64,000 nt of DNA, from IMG/VR virus record IMGVR_UViG_3300049893_002454, positions 61,546-125,545 of that record, one strand, 5' to 3'. A program made the translations under genes and the position numbers. This DNA is from a virus. Of the stretch, positions 8,154 to 37,942 are shown piece by piece. The notes beneath the pieces are model-generated. The model was not told the DNA's origin, ran no database searches, and saw only the letters and a list, made by a program, of their open reading frames with translations. Position 1 is the first letter of the stretch; each line of letters begins with the position of its first letter.

Positions 8154-8906
8154 ATGGATCTCAAAGAATTATTAAATTTAATCTCCGAAGTGGCAGACAC
8201 TCATGGAATCAGAGCTCCTCACATCGTTGGAGGTATTCCCCGAGATATCTATATGGGCTTACTCGAGGACTTAAATGACATCGATCTGACTAATGGAGAT
8301 AGCAGCATTTCTCGTTTGGCCGATCTGATAGGGGAGCGATTAGGAGTATCGCCTGCAACTCTTGCAGATGGACATAAAAAGATTAGATATGGTAGATTCT
8401 CTATAGATTTTTCTACAAATCAGATATACGATAATATTGACCAGTTGCTTATTGCTAGAGGTATGACTGTCGCAAACGATATGGTACGAGAAACCTTCTC
8501 GCGTGATTTTACAATAAATACCCTAATGGTGCCTTTAGATTTCTCTAAGATAGTCGACCTTACATCTATGGGAAAGTATGATATAGATCATAAAGTAATT
8601 AGGTGTCCTGTTGATCCACTTACTGCCATGACCTCGTCACCAAATCGTATAATTAGAGCATTTTATTATGCCGCTAGATATCGTATGTCAATAGATGACG
8701 ACCTTAAGAAAGTTATAAAAACAAACCTTCATCTATTAGAGCAGGTAAAGGAGAAATACTCCTCTGATAAGTTGGCGGCTGCTATAAAGCATGATGCTAA
8801 TATACTCAATGATCTTATTGAGTTGGGCGTGCTACAGAAGATTAAATTAACCAAGGAGATGACTGAGCAGCTTATTCAAAAGCGCCGTTTGGTCGATATA
8901 TTATGA
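8154..8906 (+). CDS. class II tRNA nucleotidyltransferase / poly(A) polymerase family protein (divergent)
   Basis: VGGIPRD, DIDLT, RDFTIN and R..RA...AAR motifs in the canonical order. Confidence 0.85.
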   Translation: MDLKELLNLISEVADTHGIRAPHIVGGIPRDIYMGLLEDLNDIDLTNGDSSISRLADLIGERLGVSPATLADGHKKIRYGRFSIDFSTNQIYDNIDQLLIARGMTVANDMVRETFSRDFTINTLMVPLDFSKIVDLTSMGKYDIDHKVIRCPVDPLTAMTSSPNRIIRAFYYAARYRMSIDDDLKKVIKTNLHLLEQVKEKYSSDKLAAAIKHDANILNDLIELGVLQKIKLTKEMTEQLIQKRRLVDIL

Positions 8907-11465: not shown

Positions 11466-11473
11466 GAGGATAG

Positions 11474-13336
11474 GTGGCAGTGTCAGCAAATAACGAGATT
11501 ACTCTAAAACTCTTTAATAAGATCAAGAGCGAAATTTCCGTTCTTGATCCAGTTTCTTTTGCAGAAAATAATCTCACTGTAGATGGAAAACCTTTTCGTA
11601 TGAGCGGAACCGGTTGGAAATTTATGGCCGATTTGTATCGTGAGGTAGCCGCACAAGCGTCGAATAAAAATGCCAAGCCAATGGTAATTTTGAAGGGAAG
11701 GCAGATAGGCGCCACTATACTTGCAGCTGTTTTATCATTATATTTTACTGCTTCAGGGCTATACGGCACTGGCCCGGATAGACCTCCTATGCGAGTATTG
11801 CATGTTTTTCCTACGCTAGGATTAATGTCTAAATATGCCAAAGACAAATTAGGCCCAATGGTTGCTGGATCTCAAGGTGGCTATATTAGCAGTCGATTGC
11901 TGAAAAATGATCCAAATGCAGTTAAAGTAGCTGGTACTGATGAGGCTATCGCAGAAAAGACCTTTTATGGGTATAACAAGCTTCGTATAGACGCCACTGG
12001 TGCTGATGGGGACCGTATCCGTGGTCTTTCGCAAGACGTTATCTTCATAGATGAGGCTCAGGATGTCAGTAAAAAGGCCATCGAAACTGCTGGTCCGATC
12101 CTAACATCATCACAGTATGGAGCCCCGACCAAAGGTATACAGTTATATTTTGGGACTCCTAAAGGTACTGGCTCGCACTTCTATAACATATGGCAGAAGT
12201 CAGATCAGCGATTTTATCAACTAAAGTGTGTCGGATGTAATCACTTCTTTTTCCTATACACTATGGGCAGTGACTCATGGAAGCAAGTTTGGGTATCAGG
12301 GCATGATGTACGTTGTCCGGAGTGTGGCACATTACAGAAGAAAGCCGATGCTATTGAAGGTGGCAGATGGGTTCCTACAAAGCTAGGTGATACGCAATAT
12401 ATTGGATACCATGTAAGTGTACTGCTGCATCCATGGTTTACTAAAGAAAATATTTTAGACTTAGATCCTGCAGTCAATCCAGATCGGCGAGAGGTGGCTT
12501 GGAGAAATGAGACTCTTGGTGAGTTCTATAGCGGCGGCGGCCTCACTATATCAGTAGATGATATTCGTGAAAACTGTTTTGATACCACCAGAGGCTTAGC
12601 CAAGACAATTCTTGACCGTGGTGATAAAACTATTGTTATGGGAGTTGACTGGGGCGGCAAGGATTTGGTTGGTCCGGGTGGCGATGAGGATGATATTTCT
12701 GTAGATAGCAAATCAGATGCCGGACAATCATATACAGCAGTAGTTATTATGAGTGTAGATAAGAGCGGTGTCTTTACAATCGAAAATGCATATAGATTAA
12801 AGCGCAATGATTTTGAATATAAGGTAAATATTATTTCAGAAATGTATCGCATATTCAAGGTGCAGAATGGGGCAGCTGATATAGGGTACGGTCAGGATAT
12901 AGTACAACATATGCAGGGTCCTATGGGATTTGGGGAGCGATTCCTAGGCTGCATCAATAGCGGCACAATCAATAGTACTATATCATATAAACCAAAAGAG
13001 CTGCGTGTAGTCCTTAATAAAGATGCTTTAATAGAAGAAGTGTTCTCTATGGTGCGCAAGGGTAAAATTAGATTTCCTGTGCACGGTGAGTCCTATGATC
13101 GGATCGATTGGCTTATACAGCATTTTACCTCTATGGAGGTAAAGAAGGTTATCAAAAATGATAATGTATATAATAGATATGTGAAGGGTGCCGTACAGAA
13201 TGACGGTCTAATGGCTACAATATATGCCCTTATTGCATATAAATTCCTAGCTACCAGTGGCTTTAAGGGAAGTGATTCTAAAGTCAAGGGAAAGGGCGCA
13301 CCCAGACCAATTCTCGCGTATTTGCCTAAAATATAG
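11474..13336 (+). CDS. terL: terminase large subunit (GpA-like)
   Basis: Walker A-like KGRQIGAT, Walker B IFIDEAQD, GTPK coupling motif, CxxC...CxxC, RNase H-like GVDWG / ADIGYG / NDGLMA; GGAGG RBS. Confidence 0.92.
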   Translation: MAVSANNEITLKLFNKIKSEISVLDPVSFAENNLTVDGKPFRMSGTGWKFMADLYREVAAQASNKNAKPMVILKGRQIGATILAAVLSLYFTASGLYGTGPDRPPMRVLHVFPTLGLMSKYAKDKLGPMVAGSQGGYISSRLLKNDPNAVKVAGTDEAIAEKTFYGYNKLRIDATGADGDRIRGLSQDVIFIDEAQDVSKKAIETAGPILTSSQYGAPTKGIQLYFGTPKGTGSHFYNIWQKSDQRFYQLKCVGCNHFFFLYTMGSDSWKQVWVSGHDVRCPECGTLQKKADAIEGGRWVPTKLGDTQYIGYHVSVLLHPWFTKENILDLDPAVNPDRREVAWRNETLGEFYSGGGLTISVDDIRENCFDTTRGLAKTILDRGDKTIVMGVDWGGKDLVGPGGDEDDISVDSKSDAGQSYTAVVIMSVDKSGVFTIENAYRLKRNDFEYKVNIISEMYRIFKVQNGAADIGYGQDIVQHMQGPMGFGERFLGCINSGTINSTISYKPKELRVVLNKDALIEEVFSMVRKGKIRFPVHGESYDRIDWLIQHFTSMEVKKVIKNDNVYNRYVKGAVQNDGLMATIYALIAYKFLATSGFKGSDSKVKGKGAPRPILAYLPKI

Positions 13337-13349
13337 GAGTAGATTTATA

Positions 13350-15230
13350 ATGAAGAAAGATTACCACGATCAAATAAGCAGAGCTGAAGAGCAGGCTAAG
13401 AGATGGTCCGTTCCAGACTCTAGACAAAATGTTCTAGATCAAATGTATTACAATCAAGTGCAACGCCAATTAGGTATTCCTACTGATAGAATGCCTAAAA
13501 CTTTTTTGCAAAAAAATGCTATTGCATCTACTGGATTAAATTCACTGAGTAGTGAACGTAGAGAATATTTACAGGAATTAAATGATCGTGCAGAGGAGCA
13601 TCCCAGACCAAATCTTGCATTAGCTGCTGGAATACGCAAGAATGCATCAGTTAGTACTGGCGGGCTCGGCGGAACGCCAAATACTTCACATATAGGTCCA
13701 GAGCCATTTTCGCCACTGTTTCTTACACAAAATATGCAATTACCGAGAGATCGTATTACGATGAATGCGTGGAATAGAGCATATTTTGAAACAAATCCTA
13801 TTGTAAGAAATGCTATAACGCTACATGCAACATATCCAATATCAAAGCTACAGATCAGATGTGATGATAAGAATGTAGAAAAGTTCTTTTTTGATATGTG
13901 CGATAGAATCGATTTAGAGAATGTGGTCCAGCAAGCTGCGATGGAATTCTGGAAGCTAGGAGAATGTTTCGTGTATGCGTCATTTGATGAGTCCACTAGA
14001 TCATGGGATCAGCTATATCTTCACAATCCAGACTATATTCAAGTTGATGCTTCTCCGCTATCACCAAAAAATACAGTTATTCTATTAAGACCGGATGATG
14101 CATTGAGAAAGATCGTCTCCTCGGCCGACAGTCAATATGCGCGTCTGCGAGAGCAGCTCGACCCACGTATTGTTAATCATGTAATTAGAAATGAGATGAT
14201 TCCACTAGATTCATTTAATATTAGTCACCTAAAGATGCTAAACTCTCCATATGACTTGCGCGGAACATCTATTATCGTAAGCATATGGAAAGATCTTATG
14301 TTGTATGATAAGTATCGCGAGTGTAAATTTATTCAAGCCGACAGCATGGTGAATCCTCTTACATTAGTAAAGCTTGGCACTGATGGGGCGGAAGGATTTT
14401 ACCCCAGACAAGAAGAGATTGATAATTGGCGTTCTATTATGGAACAAGCTCAGTTTGATCGAGATTTTAAAATTATAACTCATGGTTCTGTAGCTATAGA
14501 GCGGGTTGGTTCTGCAGGGCATACTCTCGATACTGCGGCCGATATCAATCAGATTATGGACAATCTTTATACCGGACTGCAAGTACCAAAGTCTCTCTTA
14601 ACTCAAGAAGGTGCATCATATGCTACTGCCTCTGTAGCACTTGATGTGATGAGGCAGAGATATAATAGTTTTAGAACTATGATCTCAAATTGGTTAGAGC
14701 GAAAAATCTTTGCGCCAATATCTGAGGCGCAGGGTTTTTATGATATCGTCGGACAAGAAAAGCGACTAATCATACCTAAAGTTGAATGGAATCACATGAC
14801 GCTCTATGATCTCGATAATTACATAGCGCATCTGGCAACTCTTGTAGAAAAGAACCGTGTATCAGTAAGAACACTAGATCGCAGCCTGGGACTTAGCCGA
14901 AAAAACGAATTGGCAAACATTCGCCAAGAAATGATTGAAGCAGCAATCGTAGCTAAGGAACAAGAGAATTTGTCAAAGATGACATTGTCTCAGCTTAAGA
15001 GCTTAAACCCAACTGAGCCTATACCGGAACCAACAGATAATGGTTCCGGCGGGGCCGGCGGAATGATGGGAGGCCTACCGGGCGTGCCACCACCGTTACC
15101 GGGAGGGGATATGGGCTCACTTGGCCCTCCACCTATTGGTGGTATGGACTTAAATGCTCCGGCCCCAGCACCAATCGAACCTCCAGGAGGCATGCCTGGA
15201 GCCCCAACTCCGCCTGGACCATCAATGTGA
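13350..15230 (+). CDS. portal protein
   Basis: Directly follows terL; YFETNPIVRNAITLH, EFWKLGECF, HLKMLNSPYDLRGTS and LQVPKSLL are portal-like; Pro/Gly-rich tail; AGGAG RBS before ATG 13350. Confidence 0.85.
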   Translation: MKKDYHDQISRAEEQAKRWSVPDSRQNVLDQMYYNQVQRQLGIPTDRMPKTFLQKNAIASTGLNSLSSERREYLQELNDRAEEHPRPNLALAAGIRKNASVSTGGLGGTPNTSHIGPEPFSPLFLTQNMQLPRDRITMNAWNRAYFETNPIVRNAITLHATYPISKLQIRCDDKNVEKFFFDMCDRIDLENVVQQAAMEFWKLGECFVYASFDESTRSWDQLYLHNPDYIQVDASPLSPKNTVILLRPDDALRKIVSSADSQYARLREQLDPRIVNHVIRNEMIPLDSFNISHLKMLNSPYDLRGTSIIVSIWKDLMLYDKYRECKFIQADSMVNPLTLVKLGTDGAEGFYPRQEEIDNWRSIMEQAQFDRDFKIITHGSVAIERVGSAGHTLDTAADINQIMDNLYTGLQVPKSLLTQEGASYATASVALDVMRQRYNSFRTMISNWLERKIFAPISEAQGFYDIVGQEKRLIIPKVEWNHMTLYDLDNYIAHLATLVEKNRVSVRTLDRSLGLSRKNELANIRQEMIEAAIVAKEQENLSKMTLSQLKSLNPTEPIPEPTDNGSGGAGGMMGGLPGVPPPLPGGDMGSLGPPPIGGMDLNAPAPAPIEPPGGMPGAPTPPGPSM

Positions 15231-15233
15231 TGT

Positions 15234-15572
15234 ATGAGAATACCTAATGATATACGCAATATTTCATTTAAGACATATCACGGTATAGGCAATGCTCTAG
15301 ATTTTATTTGGCATACTTGTTGTGGCCGTCATGGCGATATTAAGCAGGCGGGTAAATATATAGATATTCTCTCCGGGTGGCGTCTAACTATTAATAAAAT
15401 GCGTATATATAGCTCACCCGAATTATCTCTCGCTGAGAGATTAAATTATAGTAGAGCTTGCAAAGATATAGATTCATTATTATTTAGGCTGAGCAGAATA
15501 TCCGGTGCTCTACCGAAAAAGGTGACCGATGCTATTGAGTCGACGAGCGCAGATCCAGATCAAGGGGATTGA
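15234..15572 (+). CDS. hypothetical protein
   Basis: 112-aa ORF right after portal; overlaps next gene by 44 nt. Confidence 0.45.
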   Translation: MRIPNDIRNISFKTYHGIGNALDFIWHTCCGRHGDIKQAGKYIDILSGWRLTINKMRIYSSPELSLAERLNYSRACKDIDSLLFRLSRISGALPKKVTDAIESTSADPDQGD

Positions 15573-16851
15573 AGTATATAGTGCATCTTCTATATATGTG
15601 TTAGCAAAGCGCAAGTATGAAAAGAACTATACTAAGAAGATAAAGACTGATTCTGGCGAAGTGCGTATATATGATGACGCTCATATAGCAAAGCGATGGG
15701 AGAAGAAGGTAGGGCAAATCAGTGCCCTCAAAAAGAATTTACCAAAGCTACAGCATAAGTATCGTGCAGATCTCAAGTCAGATGATCTTAAAATTCGTAC
15801 TATAGCAGCAATAGTAGCTATCTTAGATCTTACTGCAATGCGCATAGGGAATGACGGCTCAGTTGAAGATTTTGGGACATTTGGAGCCACTACTCTCAAA
15901 AAGAAGCATATAAAGATCAGTGGTAATACTGTTAAGTTCAATTTTCTAGGAAAGAAGAAGGTAGATCAGACATTTTCATTTACTGATGCTGGCGTTGCTA
16001 AAGTATTGAAGGAATTATTGAAGGGCAAATCCAACAATGATTTCGTTTTTGAATATGAAGATGGAAAGCGTATCCGCGCCAAAGTAGTTAATCGTTATCT
16101 GGCCGCTTTCAATATCACAGCTAAAGACCTTAGAGGCTTTCACGCTAATCAACTAATGCGCGATGAATTAAAGCATACTAAAGATTTCGAAAAAGCTCTA
16201 GAGCAAGTGTCAGATAGGGTGGGTCACGAGCCAAAGACGTTAATGAACCAATATCTAGATCCTGCATTAGTTAAGCGGTATAAAAAGGCTGCGCTTAGCC
16301 TTGCCGATTATATAAATTCAGAACTTTCAAGTATACTACAGAAACAGCCAAAATCAATGGCTCCATTATCGACAAAACCTAAGTCTAGTGCTCCAGGCAA
16401 GTCGACTCCATTACGTCCAGGAGAGCAGCTGGCAGGTGGGCAGAAGATTACTTCACCATATGGTATGCGCACTCATCCGCGCACAAAGAAAAGGGTTCAT
16501 CATGACGGCGTAGATCTACGCGCAGCAAAGAACACTGAAATCTTAGCTTATGATGATGGCATAGCTGTATTCGCCGGTAGAGGTAATGCTTATAGTGGAA
16601 ATATGGTGACTATTTTACATGGTCCGGATCAAAGGCTTGCAACTAAGTATCTTCATTTGAATAAAGTTCTGGTGTCTCCGGGAGCAAGTGTAAGCAAAGG
16701 TCAGGTTATAGGTCTTGCTGGTTCCACTGGTAGAGTTACGGGAGCGCACCTTCATTTTGTTATGGAATATGATTCGCAGGTCATAGACCCAACCCCATAC
16801 TTAAAAGATCGTACTGTAGTAGGAGCAATGCATGCCAGGGAAGCTGTCTAA
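15529..16851 (+). CDS. DNA topoisomerase IB fused to C-terminal M23 metallopeptidase
   Basis: TopIB catalytic set: MRIGN, GKKKV, KDLRGFHAN, VGH....NQY; M23: HDGVDL, GN.V.ILH, YLHL, TGRVTGAHLHF. Confidence 0.9.
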   Translation: MLLSRRAQIQIKGIEVYSASSIYVLAKRKYEKNYTKKIKTDSGEVRIYDDAHIAKRWEKKVGQISALKKNLPKLQHKYRADLKSDDLKIRTIAAIVAILDLTAMRIGNDGSVEDFGTFGATTLKKKHIKISGNTVKFNFLGKKKVDQTFSFTDAGVAKVLKELLKGKSNNDFVFEYEDGKRIRAKVVNRYLAAFNITAKDLRGFHANQLMRDELKHTKDFEKALEQVSDRVGHEPKTLMNQYLDPALVKRYKKAALSLADYINSELSSILQKQPKSMAPLSTKPKSSAPGKSTPLRPGEQLAGGQKITSPYGMRTHPRTKKRVHHDGVDLRAAKNTEILAYDDGIAVFAGRGNAYSGNMVTILHGPDQRLATKYLHLNKVLVSPGASVSKGQVIGLAGSTGRVTGAHLHFVMEYDSQVIDPTPYLKDRTVVGAMHAREAV

Positions 16852-17077
16852 GACCGATGAAAAGAAATGGCGTAAAGCCAAGCACATTGTACGTAAACAG
16901 AAGGGTTCTAAGCAATCTAAATTCACTGATCGCGACTGGGGTCTAGTTACTCACATATTTAAGAAACAGAAGAAAGCCGCAATAGTAGATGCGCTGTATG
17001 TAATTGCAACAGCATTTGATGCTATAGATGATACCCTGTCAGCAAATTGTATTGATGATATTTTGGAGAATATATGA
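16832..17077 (+). CDS. small basic protein with C-terminal hairpin motif (ChaB-like N-terminus, tentative)
   Basis: AGGAG RBS; DEKKWRKAK...DWGLVTHIFKK; IATAFDAIDDTLSANCID. Confidence 0.65.
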   Translation: MPGKLSKTDEKKWRKAKHIVRKQKGSKQSKFTDRDWGLVTHIFKKQKKAAIVDALYVIATAFDAIDDTLSANCIDDILENI

Positions 17078-20000
17078 AATATAGCAGCATTGTTAGTGAC
17101 CTGATCCGACGATTCTCATCCCTAGATATTATAATAGAGCCAGAAGAGAGTGCTGTACGCGAAGCTGTGAATAAGCTAATTGGATCAAATCCAAAGTATT
17201 TCGAAGGCGTTAAGAAAGTTGTCGTAGAGCATGACGTTCCACATTCTCCATATTTAGGAAAGTCTACTGGAGAGGGTATTATCTATATTTCATTAGATGC
17301 GATAAGAAATCAGCTCAAATCTCAAGGCGAAGAGCACAATCAGCAGGCTTTTATTCATGAACTGGTTAAGACTCTTGGACATGAGGTGGCTCATATCCGT
17401 GGCGGCATGGAGCACACTGAAGGGCCATCGGAAGTCGAAGAGCAAGTCTTAGAACAGAAGTTTCCAATGCCAGCATTAAAACGAGAGGCTGCTGACTTAA
17501 CAGACAAGCAGAGGAGAGCTATAGTACTGCAGAAAGAGATCGCTGCACTACAGGGGCAATTAAACCAGATTCAGACGGTATGGAAGCAACTTACTAAGCC
17601 AGGTATCAAGGTAGACCCCGCGCGCGAAGTTCATTTTAAAGCAGAACAGGATAGAATTAATAATGAAATAACTGCCAGGCGCTCAGAAATAGAATCTCTT
17701 GAAAAATTGGAACAAGCAGTTACCAAAGAAACGATATCTGATGAGAAGGCGGCTCCTAAATCACCAGCAGTTACAAATGTTAATGATCTGGCTAGATATG
17801 GCCCGCTATTTAAAGATTTAGCTGCATCACTAGGCAGCGCATTATCTGGTCTAGTAAAGCTATATCAGCTCTTAAATGGAGCTCCGGATTTCGTCAAAGG
17901 AGAGGGTAAGATTTTACCAAGGATGAAAGAAGTAATCTCTTCCACGGACGCTTTATATAAAAAGATGTCATCGCGTATACAGGCTCATACGGATGCACCT
18001 CATCTTCTTAAAGAATTAGCATTGGAAATATTATTTGAAGAAACTAGCGAATCGCTACTTGATACTGGTGATTTCCTAACATCAGAACAGGATTTTATTA
18101 CACCGCTGACGAATCAAGGAGTGGAATCAGATTTTTATAAAAATGCCATTGCTCCTTTAGTTAATGAAATACTAGCATCAATAACTAGAGCTGCTGCAGT
18201 TGTTGGTTCAGAGCATAAATCAATTCTTCAGATTCCAGAGTTGTCTACTTCCAAGTTGCCATCGGCACAAAAGAATATAGGTAAACCTCAGCGAGAGACA
18301 AAATCTCACGGCGAGCGCACGCTCTCTACAATACGAGAAGATTATCTTAATGAATTTAGTGGATTGACTGATAAATTAGAGGGGGCTCGGCGCCTTTGGA
18401 AGAATACTGCGGACCAGTCAAAATTAGCCCCGCTTTTAACAAGGAAGGACCAGCTTGAGGCTGAGTTGCAAATAGCTAAGCAAGAGTTGTCCGATGCATT
18501 TGCTGATGTAACCGCGCTTAGTGGCACTCCACGAACAAAGGAGCAGGCGGCAAAACAAAGAGCCTCTAGCGAACGATATCAGATGGCGAAGAGACGCGTA
18601 AAAGATGCTGAGGATGAACTCAGCGCACTAAAGACCAAGATATCATCTCTATATGACACTAGCGCTGTAAATGCAGATGACCTAATTGCTGCTATAGCGC
18701 CTTATTCTAACGTTGCTAGCGTAGAGGCAAGACTAAAGACTGTTTCTGAAAAACTAGAGCAGTTTAAGCTACTTGATGAATATAAGCGCCAACTTACCGA
18801 GCGACGCGAAGAACTGCTATCAAAGTCCAAGGAATTAGGCGAGGGCAATCCAGATGTCAAAGCACTGACTGCTCTTGTTGAAGTTAGCCTCCCTAAACAG
18901 ATAGCTGAGATAGAGGGTGACTTGGGAGCATCTTCTTCCCCAAAATCACGTGAAAAAGATCCTAATGAAAAACGTATAAGGGATGATATTAAGGCGAATA
19001 CTAAATTACTTAATTCACCATTGGTACGATCTATTTTTGATAAGCTTATGCCAGATATGGCTAGTGGCGGAGATCTTCGTACACAAAAGAAAAATCTTGA
19101 GAGAAAAATCAAGGTTCGTACACAAGATGTTGCTCCTGAAACTGATTATGATGAGCTGAAGGGAGTATTACCAGCCGATGTAGAAATTTCTACATGGCAG
19201 TCCCAGATAGCAGATGTCGATAGGGATATTAAATACAGAAAGCGTACTGAGATAATAGACTATATTGGTCGTTTAGGTCAGGCATTGTCTGCAATTGTTC
19301 AGCGAGCTGCTGGTAAATCCGATGTGGCTATTCCTACAGATATATTAGGCAAGTCATTACGCCTCGGCAAATACATTGGTGCTGATGGCAATGCTAAGAT
19401 TATCAGAGACTTAGAAAGCGTCGTAAACGCAAATATGAAGGCTGTTGGACCTATAGAGGCAGAATTAGGTAAGTTGCGCGATGAACTTGCTAATATCAAA
19501 CGCTCACCAAAAAAAGACGAAGTTAAAGCTGAGCGACTAAAGGCTAAGTATAAGTACCTTTCTGAGCAACCGGCTTTCAAGAAACTTAGATCAGATATCT
19601 CTTCGACAATAGAGAGACTAGTACAACATACTAGTCCAATTGTCACAGAGGAGGTATCTCAGCCAAAGATAGTTACTGAGAGAGAGGATGCTCCTGATAT
19701 TTCTGATAAACTACGTCGCAGGCGCGAAAAAGAGGAGCGGAATATCGCTAAGGAGTTTGGTTGGAAAACTGAGCTGCCTTCTCAGGAAGAATCAACTAAA
19801 TTTCCCGAATACGACGAGCGATCTAAGGCTGTTTCTAGACAATGGGAAGCACCGGAGCCGCTGGGCAAGTCTACACTAACAAATGCTATAAAGCAGGATA
19901 TAGAACGAGGTTTGATCGATCCGACAAAAATTCCTTCAGATGTACGCAAGCAGTTGTTAACTCAACTTCACGCCACCTCGGGAGAGTTGCGTTCAATAAA

Positions 20001-21921
20001 AGAACGCCTCGTAACTCCAGATGCAGAGTTGGCAGATTTACAAAAAGAGGAAGCTGCGTTTAGGCTAGATACTTCGGTTGATCCTGATTTTAATAATAAG
20101 CGTATTGAACAAAATATGGCCAAGCAGGAGTCTCTACGGCGTTCGTCCGCTAAACTACGAGAGCAGGCTAAGCGGCTTCATGCTGAGATTAGCAAAATTC
20201 GTGATGTATTGAAGGATCCAGAAAAATATGTACGTGGCACAGGCGAATTAGAAAAAGATTTGGAGAAGCAACTAGAGCGACAAGAAGCCAGGCTGTTGCA
20301 TCAGTATAAACTAGAAGATAGTATTAAAAAGCTTAGAGATGATCTCCTATATGCAGACCCATTGCAGCTTAAGAATATCCAGAAAACTATTGCTATCCAA
20401 GAAGCTGAACTTAAATCCGTAATTAAGGAGATTGCAGAGGCAGATGCCAGCATTGACAGGACTACGCGCCAATTAAGTTCCGCCCGCAAAAAACATAGCA
20501 CTGAAAGTGATAAGCCTTCGCCTATTAAGGAGAAGAGTGTACGTGTCTATGAGCCTACCGAGGAAGAGCGTGCTGCTGCTAAGCTACACAGACAGAGGTA
20601 TGAAGCTGCTGTTGATAAATCTGTGGAAGAAAAGGCCAAGCGATATCGCGCTGCAGATGAGGCGGAGAGAAGGACGATAGCTGAGCGGCGCAAATTCGTT
20701 GATCCTAATAAACCGGAGAAGCAACTTCCGTCTACGCGTATGCTTAATGCCGCACGGGCTATGCGCTATGCCTACAAGAAGGCCTTGGAGTTGAATCCTA
20801 AGGCAGCAACTTCGCGTGAAAGCAAAGTCAGAGATGCTCTCTACCGCCAAACTGAGCTAGATAATTATCTTCGCGTGCTAGACGACGAGTATTTAAAACA
20901 GGCTACTGAGCGTGCTTTATCAGAAACAAGTGATATTCAAGAGCAATTTAAATTACGTACAAAATACTTAGATGAGTTGCATAAAGCGCCAGAATATACA
21001 CAGGGCCTTGAAATGTTGCAGCAGGCAATGAATGATCTGGATAATGCTTCGATTATAGATCGTCCGGAGGGAACTGCTGCTCTGGAGTCAGTTGTTGAGC
21101 CACGCGATATGGGTAAAGGTGTCGGGAGAGTGCGTGGAAAGCCGGAGCGTATGTTAGGTGCGAAGGATCCGTACATGTTATTCTTCCGTGCTCAATATGA
21201 GGCCGAAATAGCTTTAATGCGCTATGAAGAAGCAGCTAAGGCCAAGAAGCACTTGGATAAGGTGGCAGCTAAGGCTAGAAAGGATGCTTCTGATGCGGGG
21301 TTGGACGAAAAGCAGATTAATGAGACTGTGGACAGGGAGTACAATGAAATGTTGGGCGGCATTATGGCAGCACAATATGAATCACTCTCTAAATTTGATA
21401 ATATTGTTGATAAATTAAAGGAAAGCACTCAAGGTAAAAAACCAACTGTATTTTTTGATCCTACCAAAGTAGAATCATATCTAAAGGACCTTGCAGACAA
21501 GCAGGCTGCTGCTGTTCATGAAAAGGAATTAGCAAGACGTTTTATTCAGGTACGGGAAATACCATTGCTTACGGCAGGGACATTCGACCCGGATCGCTAT
21601 CCGAAATTACTTGCTGCTGAATTTAGCGATGAGATGCCTCCAATGTCAGAACTGGCACGCCAACAACGTGGTGGCGAAGGGGTATACAAGAAGTTGCGAT
21701 ATGTCCTGCCACATCTATTGTGGGGACAAACTACACCAGGAAAGAAGGGCAAAAAGGGTGAAGGGGCAGCTGATGTACCTGCCGAAGTTGCGGGATTGCA
21801 AGAATCGCCATTTACTGAAGCTGTAAAGAAGCGCTATACGCCAGCCCCAATCAGACCAGGTGGTAAAGGTCAGCGTGGACAAAATGTACCTCAATTCATG
21901 CAATCAAAGAGTCGGAGCTAA
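17074..21921 (+). CDS. giant coiled-coil protein with N-terminal HExxH zinc-peptidase-like motif (1615 aa)
   Basis: GGAG RBS; TLGHEVAHIRGG near N-terminus; long K/E/R/L-rich helical body. Confidence 0.75.
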   Translation: MKYSSIVSDLIRRFSSLDIIIEPEESAVREAVNKLIGSNPKYFEGVKKVVVEHDVPHSPYLGKSTGEGIIYISLDAIRNQLKSQGEEHNQQAFIHELVKTLGHEVAHIRGGMEHTEGPSEVEEQVLEQKFPMPALKREAADLTDKQRRAIVLQKEIAALQGQLNQIQTVWKQLTKPGIKVDPAREVHFKAEQDRINNEITARRSEIESLEKLEQAVTKETISDEKAAPKSPAVTNVNDLARYGPLFKDLAASLGSALSGLVKLYQLLNGAPDFVKGEGKILPRMKEVISSTDALYKKMSSRIQAHTDAPHLLKELALEILFEETSESLLDTGDFLTSEQDFITPLTNQGVESDFYKNAIAPLVNEILASITRAAAVVGSEHKSILQIPELSTSKLPSAQKNIGKPQRETKSHGERTLSTIREDYLNEFSGLTDKLEGARRLWKNTADQSKLAPLLTRKDQLEAELQIAKQELSDAFADVTALSGTPRTKEQAAKQRASSERYQMAKRRVKDAEDELSALKTKISSLYDTSAVNADDLIAAIAPYSNVASVEARLKTVSEKLEQFKLLDEYKRQLTERREELLSKSKELGEGNPDVKALTALVEVSLPKQIAEIEGDLGASSSPKSREKDPNEKRIRDDIKANTKLLNSPLVRSIFDKLMPDMASGGDLRTQKKNLERKIKVRTQDVAPETDYDELKGVLPADVEISTWQSQIADVDRDIKYRKRTEIIDYIGRLGQALSAIVQRAAGKSDVAIPTDILGKSLRLGKYIGADGNAKIIRDLESVVNANMKAVGPIEAELGKLRDELANIKRSPKKDEVKAERLKAKYKYLSEQPAFKKLRSDISSTIERLVQHTSPIVTEEVSQPKIVTEREDAPDISDKLRRRREKEERNIAKEFGWKTELPSQEESTKFPEYDERSKAVSRQWEAPEPLGKSTLTNAIKQDIERGLIDPTKIPSDVRKQLLTQLHATSGELRSIKERLVTPDAELADLQKEEAAFRLDTSVDPDFNNKRIEQNMAKQESLRRSSAKLREQAKRLHAEISKIRDVLKDPEKYVRGTGELEKDLEKQLERQEARLLHQYKLEDSIKKLRDDLLYADPLQLKNIQKTIAIQEAELKSVIKEIAEADASIDRTTRQLSSARKKHSTESDKPSPIKEKSVRVYEPTEEERAAAKLHRQRYEAAVDKSVEEKAKRYRAADEAERRTIAERRKFVDPNKPEKQLPSTRMLNAARAMRYAYKKALELNPKAATSRESKVRDALYRQTELDNYLRVLDDEYLKQATERALSETSDIQEQFKLRTKYLDELHKAPEYTQGLEMLQQAMNDLDNASIIDRPEGTAALESVVEPRDMGKGVGRVRGKPERMLGAKDPYMLFFRAQYEAEIALMRYEEAAKAKKHLDKVAAKARKDASDAGLDEKQINETVDREYNEMLGGIMAAQYESLSKFDNIVDKLKESTQGKKPTVFFDPTKVESYLKDLADKQAAAVHEKELARRFIQVREIPLLTAGTFDPDRYPKLLAAEFSDEMPPMSELARQQRGGEGVYKKLRYVLPHLLWGQTTPGKKGKKGEGAADVPAEVAGLQESPFTEAVKKRYTPAPIRPGGKGQRGQNVPQFMQSKSRS

Positions 21922-21923
21922 TA

Positions 21924-23209: not shown

Positions 23210-23221
23210 TTCTATTAATAG

Positions 23222-23797: not shown

Positions 23798-23804
23798 GTG
23801 TATT

Positions 23805-23969
23805 ATGGGATTTATTAAATACTCTGTATTAGAATTAGGGGTCGAAGAGACCCTTCCAGGTTGGATTAAGCAGTCCAGTAAAGCAGAATCTGAAGTGAAG
23901 GACGATGACCTCGAGACTGCTAATAAAAGTTTAGATGATGATAGTGAAGAAAATCAAACCAAGGAATAG
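23805..23969 (+). CDS. 54-aa acidic microprotein (not in ORF track)
   Basis: AGGTG RBS; MGFIKYSVLELGVEETLPGWIKQSSKAESEVKDDDL...; fills the gap before the protease gene. Confidence 0.55.
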   Translation: MGFIKYSVLELGVEETLPGWIKQSSKAESEVKDDDLETANKSLDDDSEENQTKE

Positions 23970-23971
23970 TG

Positions 23972-26900
23972 ATGGCTATTAAAAAGATTGCGTTTAGTGA
24001 TCAACTACATATATCAAATATAGTTTCTTCAGATGTTGTAGAGGCAGAAGCCGATATTGTAAACCGATTTAAGGAAATTGTTGCGTCCTTGCGAGATGAG
24101 CAAGAGCGTATCAAGGTCGGTACCAAGATTGCACCTAAAGTAGAAGACTTTATCTACTGTCATGCTATACAGATGCATGCTGCTGAAGCAAATCTTGTTG
24201 GTGAGGACAGCGGTGAGTTTAGGAAGAATTCCCGTGGTGAGCCAGTACGAGGACATTTTGAATCAGTAAAGGATGGGCGTGGTTCAGATTCGGTAAAGTG
24301 GGTTAGTCCGGATGGAATCCAGCTCTATAAGAATGCTAATGGCGATATTTTCCCAGAAGAAGATCTTATTAAATCGCATAAAGAATGGGTAGGTAAGCCT
24401 CTATGCAAAGATCATATAAGCAGCAGCGTAGATGGAATTCGCGGTATTATAGTTGATACTTTTTATGATAACCGCTTCAAACGTGTCCATGCATTATTTG
24501 CTTTAGATAAGAAGAACTATCCTGAACTTGCTCGTAAAGTTGAAGCCAATTATGCAGTTAATGTCTCGATGGGCACAGCAGTAGGCAGATCTATTTGTAC
24601 CGAATGTGCAAATGTAGCGACCACAGAGTCTGAATATTGTCATCATGTCAAATCAAAATCTAATTATGGTGAAATAAATAAGGATCTCAAGCCCATAGAG
24701 CTTAGCTTAGTGGTTGTGGGTGCTGACCCGCGTGCGAAAGTGCGTACTGTACTAGCTAGCTTTAATAATTATTTTATGCAAAAGGCGGCGGCTCTTGCTG
24801 ATTCTTTAGAAGAAAGCGTAGAACCGACATCAATATCAAAAAATCTTAGTGTATCCGAAGTTATAGATTTACTTGGAGCACTGAACCAAGAAAGTGAAAA
24901 ATATGCCGAGGTCATGCGTCATATTTCCACTATGAAAAATCATGAGCTGCGGGAGCTCGTGCTTAAATTGAAGTCAATGAAAGATCCTACATTAACAACT
25001 GTCAAAGATACTATTGGAGAGTTGTTAGCTGAACGATACATGGCTTCTCCCCCTCCCGCGCTTGATATTAATAATGCAGGACGCCCAACAGGTACGGCCA
25101 CTCAGCCTGATTTAGGATCTGCAGCAGCAACCGGACATGACTTAGCCGGGACAAGCTTAAATACTGAGATAGGTGAGGATCCTATTTCTATGGTAGATAA
25201 GGTCGTAGGAGTTTCACGAACTCTTCCAGATCCTAATAGTGGTATAGCAACGGCATCGGCTATTTTATCAAATTTTACTGATAGTTCTGACACCGATGTC
25301 AATAACAATTCTTTGCACAATAGATTTGCAATGTTGCAGAAGAAGGAGATTCCAATGAATTTTGCAGAGTTACGTAAGCGTGCAGAAGCGCGCAAACAAG
25401 CGTATCACCAGGGCACAGAAGACCCAGCGAAGGCACTTCCGTACGATAAAATGGGTGACGCAGATAAGATCCGAGACACACAGGATAAACAGATGGTTGG
25501 TGATGAGCTTGATACCTCATCCGACATTCCCGCCGAAGATGCTAAGAAGAAGGATATTCTTCAGCGCGCTTCACTTGAAGAGCGTCGAGCTAAGCGAGCT
25601 AAGCTCCTTGAGGCACTTACCAAGCAGGCCGATTCAGCTAAGCCTGGCAATGTAGAGGAGAAGACTGACTCTCTCGGTCGTAAGGTTATGGTCGCCACTA
25701 AACCAGATGGCTCAAAAGAGGTATTGAAGGCTGATGATGAAGCCGGCACTGTTGAGAAGAAGGCTTTCTGGCAAGGAACAGAAGAGCCTACCCCTGGCAA
25801 GACCAGATATCCTCTGATGGGTGAATCACATGATAGCATGCGTGCCAAAGACAAGCAAATGAATGGCGTTGTCGAGACTGGTGCAGATGGCCTTTTCCCT
25901 GGAGATGAGCAGCTGAAGAAATCACTGCAACGCTCAGCGTCCATCAAGGCACGTCTTACAAAGAGCGCTACGCCAGGAAAGAGCACGTGGAAATTTTTTG
26001 CAGGTAATGATGAGATTCTTACTGTAAAGGCTTCTTCGGCATATGAAGTTGGCTTAGATGAGCCCGTACAAAATACAGCCCATCTCTCGCAAGACGGCAA
26101 TGACCTTGTAGCTGATGACTTTTTCAAAACTGATGTTTATGCAAAGGAAGTTATGAAGCTCATCCGTTCTGCTGGTCTTGAGAAAGCAGCAGAGACTTTA
26201 GGTGGTGAGTTACCTCCTCCGCCAGCTGCCCCGCAAGCAGCGCCAGCACCAGCAGTGCAGGAATCGCCTGCTGATGCTGCTGGGGAGCAGGAGAAAGATG
26301 CTAATGATAAGATCGTAGAGGCACTCGCCTCGATCGAATCCGCTGTTGAAGAAATTCGCAATGCAGCTAATATTGAGGATCTGAAGCAGGTAGATGTTTC
26401 ATCTGAAGGCGCTGCGGTTACAGCATCATTCCGTACTCAGCTATTTAAAGTACAGGCGGAGCTAGCATCGGCAGCTGACGAACTAGCTACTTTATCAGAA
26501 TCTGCTGTATCAAGCGCAATCGTTGACGAGGCTGTGTCTGACGCATTTACAGTTGCTACTGCAGCCGCCGATTTGCTAGATAAGTTTGCTGCAAAGAAAA
26601 AGAAGAAAAAAGATGATGTCAAGAAGATGAAGAAGGTAAAGAAGCTTTTTGATAATAAGAAGCTTAAGAAGAAGGATGAAGATGAGGATGAAGATGAGGA
26701 ATTGGAGAAGAGGGCAAGCGCTACACTTGCTGAGCTTCTGGCTGCCAGAGCAGCTCGTCGCGAGGCATTAGTAGCTAGAGCCGCTGATGACGGCAGTGAG
26801 TGGGAAGAGGTTACACGTCCAGAAATCCCATCATTACTAATGCAGCCTGATACTGAAGTTGATACCATTCCTGAACAAACAGAGGTTGATACTACTGCAT

Positions 26901-27805
26901 TAGACGATGGTCTCGATGCTGCCGAAGAGTTAAGTGAAGCCCTGGAGGCATGGGACGCTGAAGACGCTGCATTATCCGCTAAGGATAAGGGAGATGTTGA
27001 AGGTCCGCTTAGCAAAGAAGAGGAAGATGAAGTTGCTGAGATAGCCGACGAAGAGGTTGATGAGCACGAAAAGGAGATGCATGCTGATGATGGCCTCTTA
27101 GATCGCAAGGCCTGGAGAGCGTCTCTTCTAAAGAAGATTGCTGGCGAATGGCAGTCTACGTATTCAGAAGCTCGCAAAGGTGCCGGTCCAGAAGTTAGCG
27201 TTGATGCTAATGTATCAAATAAGCTTAACAAGGTCGAGACTCTGGCCGAGGTTAAGGATGCTATGGAAGATGTAGCTCGTTCTGAGCCGCGTAATGTACG
27301 CATGGCTGCTGAGACCCTTGATCGAATGATTCGTGCCGGGGCCGTTAAAGCAGCTCAACTCAATGAACTTGTTGCTAAGGGGGCTGTAGATGCTGAAGCC
27401 GCCAAATACTGGAAGGAGTATTTTGGTCAGACTGATGGTGGTAGCGAATTCGCTGCTGGCTTAACACAGGAATTCAAGCAGGCTAAGGCCAGCCTTGACG
27501 TTAAGGCATCAGTGGAAGAGCAAGAGGCTAAACTTATGCGCGCTTACAATCTTGCTCTTGAGGCTCAGGAACGCGGCCTTATCCCAAGGTCACGCACTGA
27601 ATTACATCGCTTTGCTTCTAATATGGTTAAGTTGCCAACTGAGCAATTTGAAGCAATGAAGAATATGATTGGCCAGGCACGCAAGGTAGATGAGCACGTT
27701 AAGACTGCCGCTCCGGTAGTTGGACTTAACTACGATCGTGCGCCAGCAGTAGCTCAACAGCCAGATGATATTTCAGTAGAGGGCTTGACTAAGCTCTTCT
27801 TCTGA
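23972..27805 (+). CDS. prohead (capsid maturation) protease fused to scaffold-like domain
   Basis: NANGDIF, KPLCKDH, VSMGT and ELSLVVVGADPRA resemble HK97/assemblin-type protease motifs; long acidic/coiled-coil C-terminus; lies between portal and capsid genes. Confidence 0.8.
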   Translation: MAIKKIAFSDQLHISNIVSSDVVEAEADIVNRFKEIVASLRDEQERIKVGTKIAPKVEDFIYCHAIQMHAAEANLVGEDSGEFRKNSRGEPVRGHFESVKDGRGSDSVKWVSPDGIQLYKNANGDIFPEEDLIKSHKEWVGKPLCKDHISSSVDGIRGIIVDTFYDNRFKRVHALFALDKKNYPELARKVEANYAVNVSMGTAVGRSICTECANVATTESEYCHHVKSKSNYGEINKDLKPIELSLVVVGADPRAKVRTVLASFNNYFMQKAAALADSLEESVEPTSISKNLSVSEVIDLLGALNQESEKYAEVMRHISTMKNHELRELVLKLKSMKDPTLTTVKDTIGELLAERYMASPPPALDINNAGRPTGTATQPDLGSAAATGHDLAGTSLNTEIGEDPISMVDKVVGVSRTLPDPNSGIATASAILSNFTDSSDTDVNNNSLHNRFAMLQKKEIPMNFAELRKRAEARKQAYHQGTEDPAKALPYDKMGDADKIRDTQDKQMVGDELDTSSDIPAEDAKKKDILQRASLEERRAKRAKLLEALTKQADSAKPGNVEEKTDSLGRKVMVATKPDGSKEVLKADDEAGTVEKKAFWQGTEEPTPGKTRYPLMGESHDSMRAKDKQMNGVVETGADGLFPGDEQLKKSLQRSASIKARLTKSATPGKSTWKFFAGNDEILTVKASSAYEVGLDEPVQNTAHLSQDGNDLVADDFFKTDVYAKEVMKLIRSAGLEKAAETLGGELPPPPAAPQAAPAPAVQESPADAAGEQEKDANDKIVEALASIESAVEEIRNAANIEDLKQVDVSSEGAAVTASFRTQLFKVQAELASAADELATLSESAVSSAIVDEAVSDAFTVATAAADLLDKFAAKKKKKKDDVKKMKKVKKLFDNKKLKKKDEDEDEDEELEKRASATLAELLAARAARREALVARAADDGSEWEEVTRPEIPSLLMQPDTEVDTIPEQTEVDTTALDDGLDAAEELSEALEAWDAEDAALSAKDKGDVEGPLSKEEEDEVAEIADEEVDEHEKEMHADDGLLDRKAWRASLLKKIAGEWQSTYSEARKGAGPEVSVDANVSNKLNKVETLAEVKDAMEDVARSEPRNVRMAAETLDRMIRAGAVKAAQLNELVAKGAVDAEAAKYWKEYFGQTDGGSEFAAGLTQEFKQAKASLDVKASVEEQEAKLMRAYNLALEAQERGLIPRSRTELHRFASNMVKLPTEQFEAMKNMIGQARKVDEHVKTAAPVVGLNYDRAPAVAQQPDDISVEGLTKLFF

Positions 27806-35804: not shown

Positions 35805-36307
35805 ATGACTACAGGTCTTTTTAATGACAAGGGAGAGCTGAATGCTACATCAGTAGCCGATGCAGTCTCTAACCTTGCCAAGTATGCAAGTGTTATTCAA
35901 AATCATATGAGCTCAAATCAGTCTCTCGCCGGCCGCCCATCCCTCAATGAGCAGCAACGTGACGACATGGTTAAGCGCGCTCTTCAAACAACCGAAGGCA
36001 AGATTGCACTCGGCCAAGCCATGGCTTTGCCGATCCGACGCAACCTTGACTATCAAGGCGTTGCGAGAAAGGCTTTCGTCGTAGATCCTTTGCCAAACGG
36101 CGCCCTTGCCGTTTATGATCGCGACGTCGATGTGGCTGCAGTAGTTGTAGCCAGCAACGGTTCAGCTCCAGAATCACAAGTTCGTGGCGACCGCATAAAC
36201 GTTCCGGAATTTGAAATCGTTTCAAACCCGGTCGTTCGTATCCGTGAAGTCAAGATGCGTCGATTCAATGTGATCGACCGTGCTGTTCAAAAGGCACGCC
36301 AGGAGAT
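35805..36307 (+). CDS. major capsid protein, exon 1
   Basis: AGGAG RBS; joins in frame to 37291..37810 to give a 340-aa protein (..KARQEI/QAQEDANAFAALD..) with HK97-like features. Confidence 0.88.
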
Positions 36308-37290
36308 CAACTGACCTTGGGTCTCCGTTAAATACCAGGTTATGCTGGAAATCCTCGAAGCTGTTTAGTACCGAATAATCGAGTAATAATCTAAACAGTA
36401 TGGGACAATCAGCAGGGGATAGTTAAATGAAAGTCGAAGATATCCTTTCTTATGAACAGCTTTATGAGCTCTATGTAGTAATTAAACTTTCTGATGCAGA
36501 AATTGCAGAGAAATTTGATTTAACAGTAGGGCAGGTTCACAGACTTAGAAATAAGTATTTGATTAAAGCTATTGAGCCATATGAACGCCATCCTAAGGCA
36601 AAATTAGATGATCAAGAGATTAGCCTAATTATAGGATTGCTTTTGGGCGACGGCCATATGCGTTTAAGAGAAGGCAGGAACACCTACCCGTCTCTTATTA
36701 TTGAGCAGTCAGCTAAGCATAGAGAATATTGCTTTTGGCTGTTTGAAGCACTTAAAGATTGGGTCCCGGATAGAAAAAGGTACCCGCGTCAGGCTCAGCA
36801 TAAGAATAAAGAAAAGATATATCACTCGTACACTTTTAGCACAGTTAGCCACCCAGCATTCTTTCAATTATATAATGCATTTTATAAGAATGGAAGAAAG
36901 ACCCTTGATATACAATATATAGCCAATCACTTTAATGTATTATCACTGGCTGTATGGTTGCAGGATGATGGCTCACTAACTGGAACTTGTAAAAGAAATA
37001 TTCTGTACACTAATTCATTTTCAAGAAGTGATATTAATGGCTTAAGGGATATTTTATTTGATAGGTTTGGGCTAAAAACTTGGATTTCTAAACGCACTAC
37101 AACTACCGAAATTAGTTATGAGATTGCGTTTGATAGAGAATCATCCAAGAAACTTTCAGACATGCTACGACACATCGTTGTACCAAGTATGTTGTACAAG
37201 CTAATCCCCTCAGAGACTACAAATGGTACTGCTACATAGTAGCAGAAGGTATAGTCCGACACTCCGAGCGATTGGAGATTAACAGAGCTG
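36308..37290 (+). ncRNA. group I self-splicing intron (983 nt) in major capsid gene
   Basis: P1 GGAGAU/GUCUCC with U-G wobble; P10 CUUGG/CCAAG; terminal G at 37290; core elements AUGCUGGAAA, AAUCAGCAGG, UCAGAGACUA, AAGGUAUAGUCC; P8 CUGCUAC/GUAGCAG. Confidence 0.93.
36427..37239 (+). CDS. intron-encoded LAGLIDADG homing endonuclease (two-motif type) with N-terminal HTH
   Basis: IIGLLLGDGH and LAVWLQDDGS motifs; LSDAEIAEKFDLTVGQVHRLR HTH. Confidence 0.9.
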   Translation: MKVEDILSYEQLYELYVVIKLSDAEIAEKFDLTVGQVHRLRNKYLIKAIEPYERHPKAKLDDQEISLIIGLLLGDGHMRLREGRNTYPSLIIEQSAKHREYCFWLFEALKDWVPDRKRYPRQAQHKNKEKIYHSYTFSTVSHPAFFQLYNAFYKNGRKTLDIQYIANHFNVLSLAVWLQDDGSLTGTCKRNILYTNSFSRSDINGLRDILFDRFGLKTWISKRTTTTEISYEIAFDRESSKKLSDMLRHIVVPSMLYKLIPSETTNGTAT

Positions 37291-37872: not shown

Positions 37873-37942
37873 ATTTGTAGAAATCACATGGTTTTAAAAT
37901 TTCTCGTCCAAGCCATTGTTACAAGCTCATATGATCATCATC

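Follow-up and report, generated by a model that had tools for sequence, protein, structure and literature searches.

We analysed a 64,000-nucleotide (nt) stretch of viral DNA (the window; positions 61,546 to 125,545 of IMG/VR record IMGVR_UViG_3300049893_002454), in which one gene, at 15529..16851, encodes a protein of 440 amino acids (aa) that joins a type IB topoisomerase (TopIB) to a peptidoglycan endopeptidase of the M23 family. Judged from its sequence, this protein is almost certainly a real fusion, with both halves predicted to be catalytically competent. The reading we lean towards, with modest confidence, is that it represents a minimal, two-module polyvalent head protein, whose M23 module would breach the cell wall at entry and whose TopIB module would act on the incoming genome. 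Its packaging and delivery as a polyvalent protein we consider probable, and a role of its TopIB module as a relaxase, which is drawn by analogy, is put forward tentatively. The window makes up the latter half of a linear viral record of 125,545 nt, and that record is a fragment of a huge uncultured freshwater phage, since its 125.5 kb amount to only 34% completeness by CheckV.

The fusion gene and its predicted enzymes

The features of the gene, all on the + strand, are as follows.

15519..15525, + strand: Shine-Dalgarno-like AAGGTGA, read in the sequence, 3 nt before the ATG at 15529
15529..16851, + strand: TopIB-M23 fusion open reading frame (ORF), 440 aa, uninterrupted (six-frame ORF list, Pfam)
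15529..15618, + strand: variable N-terminal segment, residues 1-30 (predicted local distance difference test score, pLDDT, below 50; length and sequence vary in the family)
15619..16296, + strand: TopIB module, residues ~31-256 (PF01028; Foldseek, and VIA-align to 3m4a, 2h7f and 1k4t)
15841..15843, + strand: R105, catalytic arginine 1, pairing with R137 of Deinococcus radiodurans TopIB (2f4q)
15952..15954, + strand: K142, catalytic lysine, pairing with the GK lysine of 2f4q
16132..16134, + strand: R202, catalytic arginine 2, pairing with the KDFR arginine of 2f4q
16225..16227, + strand: H233, fourth pentad residue, pairing with the GN asparagine of 2f4q
16252..16254, + strand: Y242, active-site tyrosine nucleophile, pairing with the SYICP tyrosine of 2f4q
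16297..16425, + strand: linker, residues 257-299 (pLDDT low over 254-292; family comparison)
16426..16833, + strand: M23 (LytM-type) metallopeptidase domain, residues ~300-435 (PF01551; LytM and ShyA matches)
16501..16515, + strand: H325-x3-D329 zinc-binding motif, in register with Vibrio ShyA
16654..16656, + strand: H376, catalytic histidine, invariant in the 20-member family alignment (A1)
16747..16755, + strand: H407-x-H409 motif, invariant in A1 and in register with ShyA

An earlier note on this DNA had described complete catalytic sets of a TopIB and of an M23 peptidase within one ORF adjoining the portal gene, and each part of that description held. The ORF is uninterrupted at exactly 15529..16851, and a 112-aa ORF alone intervenes between it and the end of the portal gene at 15230. 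The gene call for the window's fusion protein in the protein database (P0001) has 417 aa; we prefer the 440-aa reading because of the Shine-Dalgarno-like sequence at its ATG and because its N-terminus, M(I/L)LSR(K/R), recurs in homologues at 54-68% identity. An AlphaFold2 model computed from a 20-sequence alignment has a mean pLDDT of 80.1, with two confident domains (residues ~50-253 and 300-435) and low confidence over residues 1-30 and 254-292.

The window comes from a metagenome assembly, which gives some room to an explanation of the fusion by chimeric assembly or an artefactual frameshift, but the probability of this is negligible. A cluster search against a collection of 5.8 billion proteins returned the architecture of PF01551 with PF01028 in all 28 best clusters (100% to 40% identity), i.e., P0001 and 27 more, drawn from JGI, ENA, NCBI and Logan. 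Synteny is kept as well: four IMG/VR contigs (L001-L004) repeat the order large terminase (TerL), portal, (112-aa ORF), TopIB-M23, (81-aa ORF), and giant protein or its equivalent, continuing with three small proteins and then a protease-like protein. A close relative of the fusion protein is also found on a 367,953-nt contig. A 26,320-nt contig from a second assembler, built from the same probable source sample rather than from an independent one, has 0 differences to the window over 15200-17100 at a word depth of ~50, and so contains neither a stop nor a frameshift between the domains. In addition, identical 151-nt pieces were found in another study (run X3) at 16238-16388, from the end of TopIB into the linker, and at 16453-16603, inside M23; the runs X2, X3 and X6 consist of short pieces, none of which spans the entire ORF. 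Misassembly is thus effectively excluded. Among cultured phages, none of 50,697 records matches the fusion protein over at least 80% of its length.

The N-terminal module matches Pfam PF01028 (Topoisom_I) over residues 58-281 with 102.8 bits (cut-off 23.7; E 2.3e-29), and it has a weak, sub-threshold match to Phage_integrase, as expected from the shared fold. It comprises a beta-hairpin (residues 34-48), a reduced N-terminal clamp element, and a complete catalytic domain. The five catalytic residues were paired by a phmmer alignment to 2f4q, in which the number R137 was counted from the printed alignment. The pentad R105-K142-R202-H233-Y242 does not vary among the 20 aligned family members or across the 72 viral loci (see below), although the invariance of R105 and R202 is partly conditioned by the search because both lie within the locus-search patterns, with K142, H233 and Y242 outside them. 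The model superposes on D. radiodurans TopIB with DNA (3m4a) with Z 23.8 and a root-mean-square deviation (rmsd) of 2.3 Å over 196 residues, and on variola TopIB (2h7f) with Z 22.1 over 231 residues at an overall rmsd of 6.0 Å; the Foldseek TopIB match has E 5.8e-14. In the N-terminal clamp region only the 34-48 hairpin is modelled, with pLDDT ~63, and the variola alignment reaches model residue 23 (chain residue 21) at that same overall rmsd of 6.0 Å. By its pentad and the modelled fold of its catalytic domain, the protein is predicted to be a type IB topoisomerase.

For the C-terminal module, Pfam PF01551 (Peptidase_M23) covers residues 324-421 with 90.2 bits (cut-off 28.7; E 9.8e-26), and Staphylococcus aureus LytM (2b13) superposes on the model with Z 19.6 and an rmsd of 1.4 Å over 121 residues. 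The nearest solved M23 relatives are Gram-negative DD-endopeptidases, e.g., ShyA, at 38-39% identity. The zinc ligands H325, D329 (HxxxD) and H409 (last His of HxH) and the catalytic histidines H376 and H407 are all present, H325 and D329 being found in the 16 of 20 family members that have the canonical domain order. Judged by its active-site residues, the M23 domain is complete and not of the degenerate EnvC/NlpD type. As a separate observation, the M23 profile matches the other four members (P0024, P0025, P0027 and P0028) in two stretches, with the C-terminal half (HxH) before the N-terminal half (HxxxD), which hints at a circular permutation of the M23 domain or at partial copies in tandem.

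Gene neighbourhood and relatives of the TopIB module

The fusion gene lies within a block of head genes, whose main members besides the capsid gene are listed here.

11474..13336, + strand: TerL (phrog_675, E 3.2e-60; GpA_ATPase)
13257..15230, + strand: portal protein (phrog_16240, E 9.5e-48)
15234..15572, + strand: conserved 112-aa ORF between the portal and fusion genes (homologues in L001 and L002)
16832..17077, + strand: conserved 81-aa ORF (homologues in L001 and L004)
17074..21921, + strand: 1615-aa protein, Lys/Glu-rich, conserved in L001 and L002, without a Pfam domain
23969..27805, + strand: 1278-aa protein with a head-maturation-protease-like N-terminal region (phrog_18299, E 4.8e-10, residues 136-231)

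The substantial ORFs of the window are all on the + strand, and the order of the head block is TerL, portal, 112-aa ORF, fusion gene, giant protein, protease-like protein and capsid gene, with three small conserved proteins between the 1615-aa giant protein and the protease-like protein. The 112-aa ORF overlaps the fusion ORF by 44 nt and has no family match in Pfam or PHROG. No + strand terminator-like site was found between the portal and fusion ORFs in a scan of positions 11000-24000, which returned 34 promoter-like sites (33.1 expected) and 15 terminator-like sites (9.4 expected), and thus no usable transcription-unit signal. The protease-like protein has no Pfam family at E 0.01, and a PDB sequence search with its first 300 residues gave no credible match; a nematode lipid-binding protein (E 0.0015) and a DUF35 protein (E 0.13) were judged spurious.

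A pattern scan of IMG/VR with the family alignment yielded 72 loci that encode a relative of the TopIB half, and the neighbours in these loci were detected by phmmer with the window's own proteins as sole queries. These queries revealed a portal homologue in 36 of the 72 loci. In 20 of the 36, no more than 500 nt separate the end of the portal homologue from the TopIB ORF downstream of it; in 11 the homologue lies 0.97-5.1 kb upstream of TopIB, and in five it lies 2.0-2.6 kb downstream. A protease-like homologue is found downstream of TopIB in 32 of the 72. The TopIB ORFs themselves reach up to 3,125 aa: 35 exceed 1,000 aa, nine have 501-1,000 aa and 28 have at most 500 aa. In the nearest relatives that do not carry M23 (L005-L012, 45-54% identity), TerL and the portal are clearly homologous to those of the window, and TopIB sits, usually N-terminally, inside a giant ORF of up to 2,634 aa that follows the portal gene. 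The 1615-aa protein of the window lies at the place where these relatives have the remainder of their giant TopIB polyvalent protein, but a search of the L005-L012 giant TopIB proteins at E 1e-3 found no homologue of it, and the idea that it split off from a formerly larger polyvalent protein is therefore unsupported; its only PHROG match is weak and tape-measure-like.

The company that TopIB keeps in the larger proteins was surveyed with Pfam. Among 25 of the 35 ORFs over 1,000 aa, its partners were a PolyA_pol-type nucleotidyltransferase (8), a 2H/LigT-type phosphoesterase (6), DUF5661 (3), a LigD 3'-phosphoesterase (2), and RNA ligase, InPase, HD, SET, ASCH, an intein and LPD1 (Large polyvalent protein-associated domain 1), once each; TopIB was the only domain in nine of the 25, and M23 or lysozyme was found in none. 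A search for longer proteins returned 41 phage-type proteins of 784-2,156 aa with similar precomputed partners, two of them with Fe/Mn superoxide dismutase. A HMMER pass over 1.84 billion cluster representatives identified 4,872 proteins at E 1e-3 or better, including 247 at E 1e-30 or better. Only 13 of the best 150 have 350 aa or fewer; 113 are longer than 500 aa, 57 are longer than 1,000 aa, and six carry M23. Pfam was run on 75 of these 150 (74 mid-size proteins of 351-1,000 aa plus P0164) and recognised ART-PolyVal (2), LPD3 (1), HAD_SAK_1 'Swiss Army Knife RNA repair' (3), 2H (5), PolyA_pol (3), LigD_N, Ham1 and SET, with TopIB the one domain recognised in 49 of the 75.

Wall peptidases recur in this set. 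M23 accompanies TopIB also in P0164 (1112 aa), and VanY was found in three of the 75 (P0176, P0183 and P0186; 25.9-29.1 bits, cut-off 25), where no individual stretch is significant by itself, and in P0030 (26.7 bits, same cut-off), which has one significant stretch. Because VanY occurs beside the M23 fusions, the TopIB lineage has, by these domain matches, been fused to wall peptidases on at least two occasions, each time of a different family. Domains that mark polyvalent proteins are found in the lineage too, namely LPD1 in L055 and P0151, LPD3 with ART-PolyVal in P0261, ART-PolyVal in P0201 and InPase in L045. In most cases, phage-type TopIB forms one module of a large multidomain protein, whose gene often lies beside a portal gene. 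The proteins P0135, P0136, P0283, P0190, P0201 and P0261, in which TopIB occurs with Fe/Mn superoxide dismutase, Ham1-type ITPase, SET or ART-PolyVal/LPD3, display an unusually broad effector repertoire.

Several further observations concern the genes around the head block. The portal ORF and the 112-aa ORF share a reading frame in the window, L001 and L002 (junction in L002 at about 3611-3625), and in the window (15228-15236) and L001 (9700-9708) they are separated by only a stop codon and one further codon. This arrangement could possibly reflect read-through or a recently split portal extension, and portal length among the relatives ranges from 634 to 1,413 aa. The major capsid gene is split into 35805..36314 (phrog_2522 positions 11-161) and 37463..37810 (positions 215-317), with a LAGLIDADG homing-endonuclease ORF at 36427..37239 between them. 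Because each of the three pieces has a reading frame of its own, the insertion resembles an intron rather than an intein, and no group I or II intron was found in it by Rfam at gathering score. Directly 3' of the capsid gene are two homing-endonuclease-like ORFs, of GIY-YIG/HNH type (37916..38995) and HNH type (38941..40161). A stand-alone PolyA_pol/tRNA-nucleotidyltransferase-like gene is located upstream of the terminase at 8154..8906, and in related phages the same domain is built into the giant TopIB polyvalent protein. A patatin-like phospholipase (51216-52034; PF01734, E 2.3e-31) lies amid large unannotated ORFs, presumably of the virion or tail.

The window has no tRNA and no Rfam family. 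Elsewhere the record encodes PolIII-alpha with an intein, RecA, a primase, chaperones, ClpP, ribosomal protein S21 and a sugar-biosynthesis block. Its upstream half (1-61545) contains, besides the genes for PolIII-alpha, ClpP and S21, those for Cpn60, DnaJ, trigger factor, peptide deformylase, two sigma-factor-like genes, a PD-(D/E)XK nuclease with a LAGLIDADG insertion, and a ~20-kb block of sugar-nucleotide and glycosyltransferase genes.

Probable packaging and delivery as a polyvalent protein

Polyvalent proteins, as described by Iyer et al. 2017 (PMC5512222), occur in phages and conjugative elements and combine 2 to 15 domains of disparate activity. Those of phages were inferred there to be packaged and injected, with their peptidoglycan-cleaving domains breaching the wall at invasion, and peptidases contained within them may process them, either in the head or once injected. 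The same paper describes peptidoglycan and nucleic-acid enzymes joined in single phage polyvalent proteins; its main text contains 'topoisomerase' once, in the title of a reference, and 'M23', 'LytM', 'TopoIB', 'tyrosine recombinase' and 'integrase' 0 times. The fusion protein resembles this class in combining unrelated enzymes, i.e., a wall-cleaving module and a nucleic-acid enzyme, as disparate domains of one viral ORF, and in its place among the virion genes of a portal-terminase phage, in an order that is kept in L001-L004. In addition, its TopIB relatives carry LPD1, LPD3, ART-PolyVal and InPase. It differs in having two modules (440 aa) only. The earlier note had considered the fusion odd since its activities belong to two compartments; the two activities are indeed joined, but there is precedent in kind among these polyvalent proteins (PMC5512222), so that the oddness is explained by a known class.

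A second precedent is gp28 of cyanophage A4, which is a capsid-packaged pre-ejectosome protein that touches the portal barrel (PDB 9k2v; PMC12002296) and has lytic-transglycosylase and M23-like domains with conserved catalytic residues, for which peptidoglycan hydrolysis at infection was proposed. A4 gp28 resembles the fusion protein in having an M23-like domain, there within a portal-associated packaged protein. The homology between them is limited to the M23 domain (E 0.00029 by sequence), and A4 is a small podophage in which the M23 domain is paired with a lytic transglycosylase and helical bundles, without a DNA enzyme. The earlier proposal that the fusion protein is packaged therefore finds support in context, from a virion-module gene in the slot between the portal and the protease and capsid genes, from giant post-portal relatives with marker domains and from the A4 gp28 precedent, and packaging itself is an inference from these.

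In the mechanism that we propose, the fusion protein would be packaged in the capsid near the portal and would leave the particle with or ahead of the DNA. Its C-terminal M23 endopeptidase would cut peptidoglycan cross-links locally, opening the wall for genome entry. In our reading of the sequence, for which no predictor was run, the N-terminus is unlike an export signal or a membrane anchor, and because of this the route of the M23 module to the wall would be either delivery by the virion or holin-dependent release. The N-terminal TopIB would nick and reseal the entering linear genome and release torsional stress during ejection and first transcription; it could act on the entering genome because a TopIB needs neither ATP nor a host partner.

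The second of the two routes corresponds to a different explanation, namely that the fusion protein is an unpackaged, late intracellular protein, whose TopIB relieves torsion in replication or portal packaging and whose M23 module is a lysis enzyme released by a holin. The lack of an export-signal look at the N-terminus would suit this explanation, as canonical holin-dependent endolysins have the same property, and Pfam found no second peptidoglycan hydrolase, and no second topoisomerase, over the available 125.5 kb. However, only 34% of the genome has been seen, and the absence of another lysin weighs little. Some of the PHROG families matched by the M23 half are annotated as endolysin, but the well-matching 'endolysin' PHROG is a 2,898-position profile, i.e., a giant virion-type protein, and others are tape-measure, minor-head and internal proteins. 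The explanation is also in line with the conventional assignment of jumbo-phage topoisomerase I (TopoI) to DNA topology: Iyer et al. 2021 (PMC7824862) filed the 'phage-specific topoisomerase I' of phiRSL1, Lu11, PaBG, Motura and NCTB under DNA topology/repair. Those are likewise TopIB-fold enzymes of large phages, and PaBG gp84 (562 aa) and its counterpart in Xanthomonas phage PhiXhv-15 (668 aa) exceed a bare TopIB and lie few genes from capsid or connector genes, gp84 being four genes upstream of the capsid gene. They differ, however, in having 23-30% identity to the window's TopIB, in not being adjacent to the portal and in having no fusion to a wall hydrolase. The 14 Coomassie-visible bands reported for the PaBG virion (PMC7412058) list gp83, gp81 and gp80 and not the TopIB gp84, which is uninformative as only abundant proteins would be detectable. 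Against an unpackaged role stand the conserved position of the gene between the portal and the protease and capsid genes, and the embedding of TopIB in proteins of 1,000-3,125 aa with polyvalent marker or effector domains, which is unlike replication topoisomerases or endolysins. We therefore regard an unpackaged role as unlikely.

The linker between the modules is predicted, from the model, to be flexible and to span ~45 residues. It begins with a short conserved amphipathic helix (SELxxIL) and continues as a Pro/Lys/Ser/Ala-rich spacer, whose length varies across the family from about 25 to over 60 residues. Such a linker would allow the two modules to work one after the other or across the envelope from each other, and their proteolytic separation is therefore possible and not required. 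The earlier note had gone further and proposed a packaged polyprotein cut at KxA, for which we found no support. In this explanation, a prohead protease would cut the packaged polyprotein between YKKA and AL, freeing a topoisomerase and a wall hydrolase. Several lines of evidence are compatible with it: the head-maturation-protease-like region encoded at 23969..27805; a linker, variable and modelled with low confidence, that a protease could reach; the possibility, discussed by Iyer et al. 2017 (PMC5512222), that polyvalent proteins are cut by proteases within the head or following injection; and the multiple processing described for PaBG virion proteins (PMC7412058). However, YKKA lies in model helix 245-253, the last helix of the TopIB fold, where it aligns to FDRYLDG of the D. 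radiodurans enzyme, and its alanine is replaced (KKD, KG, KP) in five of the 20 members, P0023 to P0026 and P0028. A semi-conserved (P/S/A/G)-(G/A)-E directly before the start of M23, found in seven of the 20 members, would by sequence be at least as good a candidate cut site as KxA. Furthermore, there is no Pfam match or credible PDB match that would assign the protease a family or specificity, and neither activity requires cutting. Cleavage at YKKA is thus quite improbable, and processing of the fusion protein in some form is possible.

A number of points weigh against the reading of the fusion protein as a packaged polyvalent protein. Packaging is deduced from the gene context, and the role assigned to TopIB would follow by analogy. 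No cultured phage among the 50,697 phage records has the TopIB-M23 architecture. Pfam found no class-marker domain (LPDs, ART-PolyVal or InPase) in the fusion protein itself, and because these domains were found in its TopIB relatives only, they support the TopIB lineage and not the fusion protein directly. Half of the loci (36 of 72) have no match to the window portal as single query; six of these 36 offer less than 2 kb upstream, and most of the others have a short TopIB ORF within a very large contig. The 28 short TopIB ORFs, which are mostly on huge-phage contigs, have a portal match in only 12 cases, so that some TopIBs could be ordinary replication enzymes. As only about a third of the genome has been seen, a separate endolysin or topoisomerase may exist elsewhere in it. 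Lastly, jumbo-phage TopoI is treated by Iyer et al. 2021 as a DNA-topology enzyme (PMC7824862). On balance, the conserved portal-adjacent position and the domain company of the TopIB lineage nevertheless lead us to favour packaging.

A possible role of the TopIB module at genome entry and its significance

The TopIB of poxviruses is a virion component and a fair functional precedent, and the packaged enzyme is thought to relieve torsional stress in a similar way to that proposed here. The module of the fusion protein shares with the poxvirus and bacterial enzymes the catalytic fold and the R-K-R-H-Y pentad (Asn at the fourth position in D. radiodurans). It differs from them in that its clamp domain is reduced to a beta-hairpin and a low-confidence segment, in being fused to a peptidase or, in relatives, embedded within giant proteins, and in its low identity (20-28%).

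A third explanation accepts packaging but not relaxation. In this explanation, TopIB would belong to an injected end-repair or anti-defence kit dealing with 3'-phosphate/5'-OH ends, or would cleave close to one end of the genome and remain there as a Y242-linked, end-protecting pilot that tethers M23 to the leading DNA end. Vaccinia TopIB is known to have ribonuclease and suicide-cleavage activities. The commonest TopIB partners in the large proteins are end-healing or RNA-repair domains (2H, LigD 3'-phosphoesterase, RNA ligase, CCA/PolyA-type nucleotidyltransferase with HD, and HAD_SAK_1), the window phage has a nucleotidyltransferase as a separate gene (8154..8906), and the pentad including its tyrosine is strictly conserved, as covalent chemistry would require. 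However, no sequence feature sets this explanation apart from ordinary relaxation, and the record, as a fragment, does not define the genome ends. Moreover, polyvalent proteins as described by Iyer et al. 2017 (PMC5512222) combine unrelated activities by definition, so that co-occurrence need not mean a shared pathway. We consider this explanation, too, to be unlikely.

A broader version, for which our expectation is equally low, is that huge phages of a very large, uncultured clade have TopIB as a so far unrecognised hallmark of their injected polyvalent proteins and that the module, instead of being a simple relaxase, lends its 3'-phosphotyrosyl chemistry to an end cap or a repair kit. As an end cap, TopIB would cleave near the genome end that is ejected first and stay covalently attached, and the resulting exonuclease-resistant end would tether an M23 'drill'. 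As a repair kit, TopIB and the co-fused 2H, LigD-phosphoesterase, RNA-ligase and CCA-adding modules would mend 3'-P/5'-OH breaks made by host defence nucleases.

In the literature, we found no report of TopIB in a phage virion, in ejection or in polyvalent proteins, the closest being a one-sentence mention by Iyer et al. 2021 (PMC7824862). It appears to be new that TopIB, accompanied here by M23 or VanY, recurs as a module in polyvalent proteins encoded next to the portal gene of huge uncultured phages. If packaged, the fusion protein would be a bacteriophage counterpart of the poxvirus virion topoisomerase, and a DNA-topology enzyme would join the activities that phages deliver together with their genomes. 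The TopIB lineage occurs mainly in large or giant multidomain proteins, often beside the portal and across hundreds of protein clusters, which points to a large unexplored class of presumptive injected effectors. The 440-aa TopIB-M23 protein is the smallest member and should be easily expressed and assayed, potentially providing an entry point to the role of a topoisomerase at genome entry.

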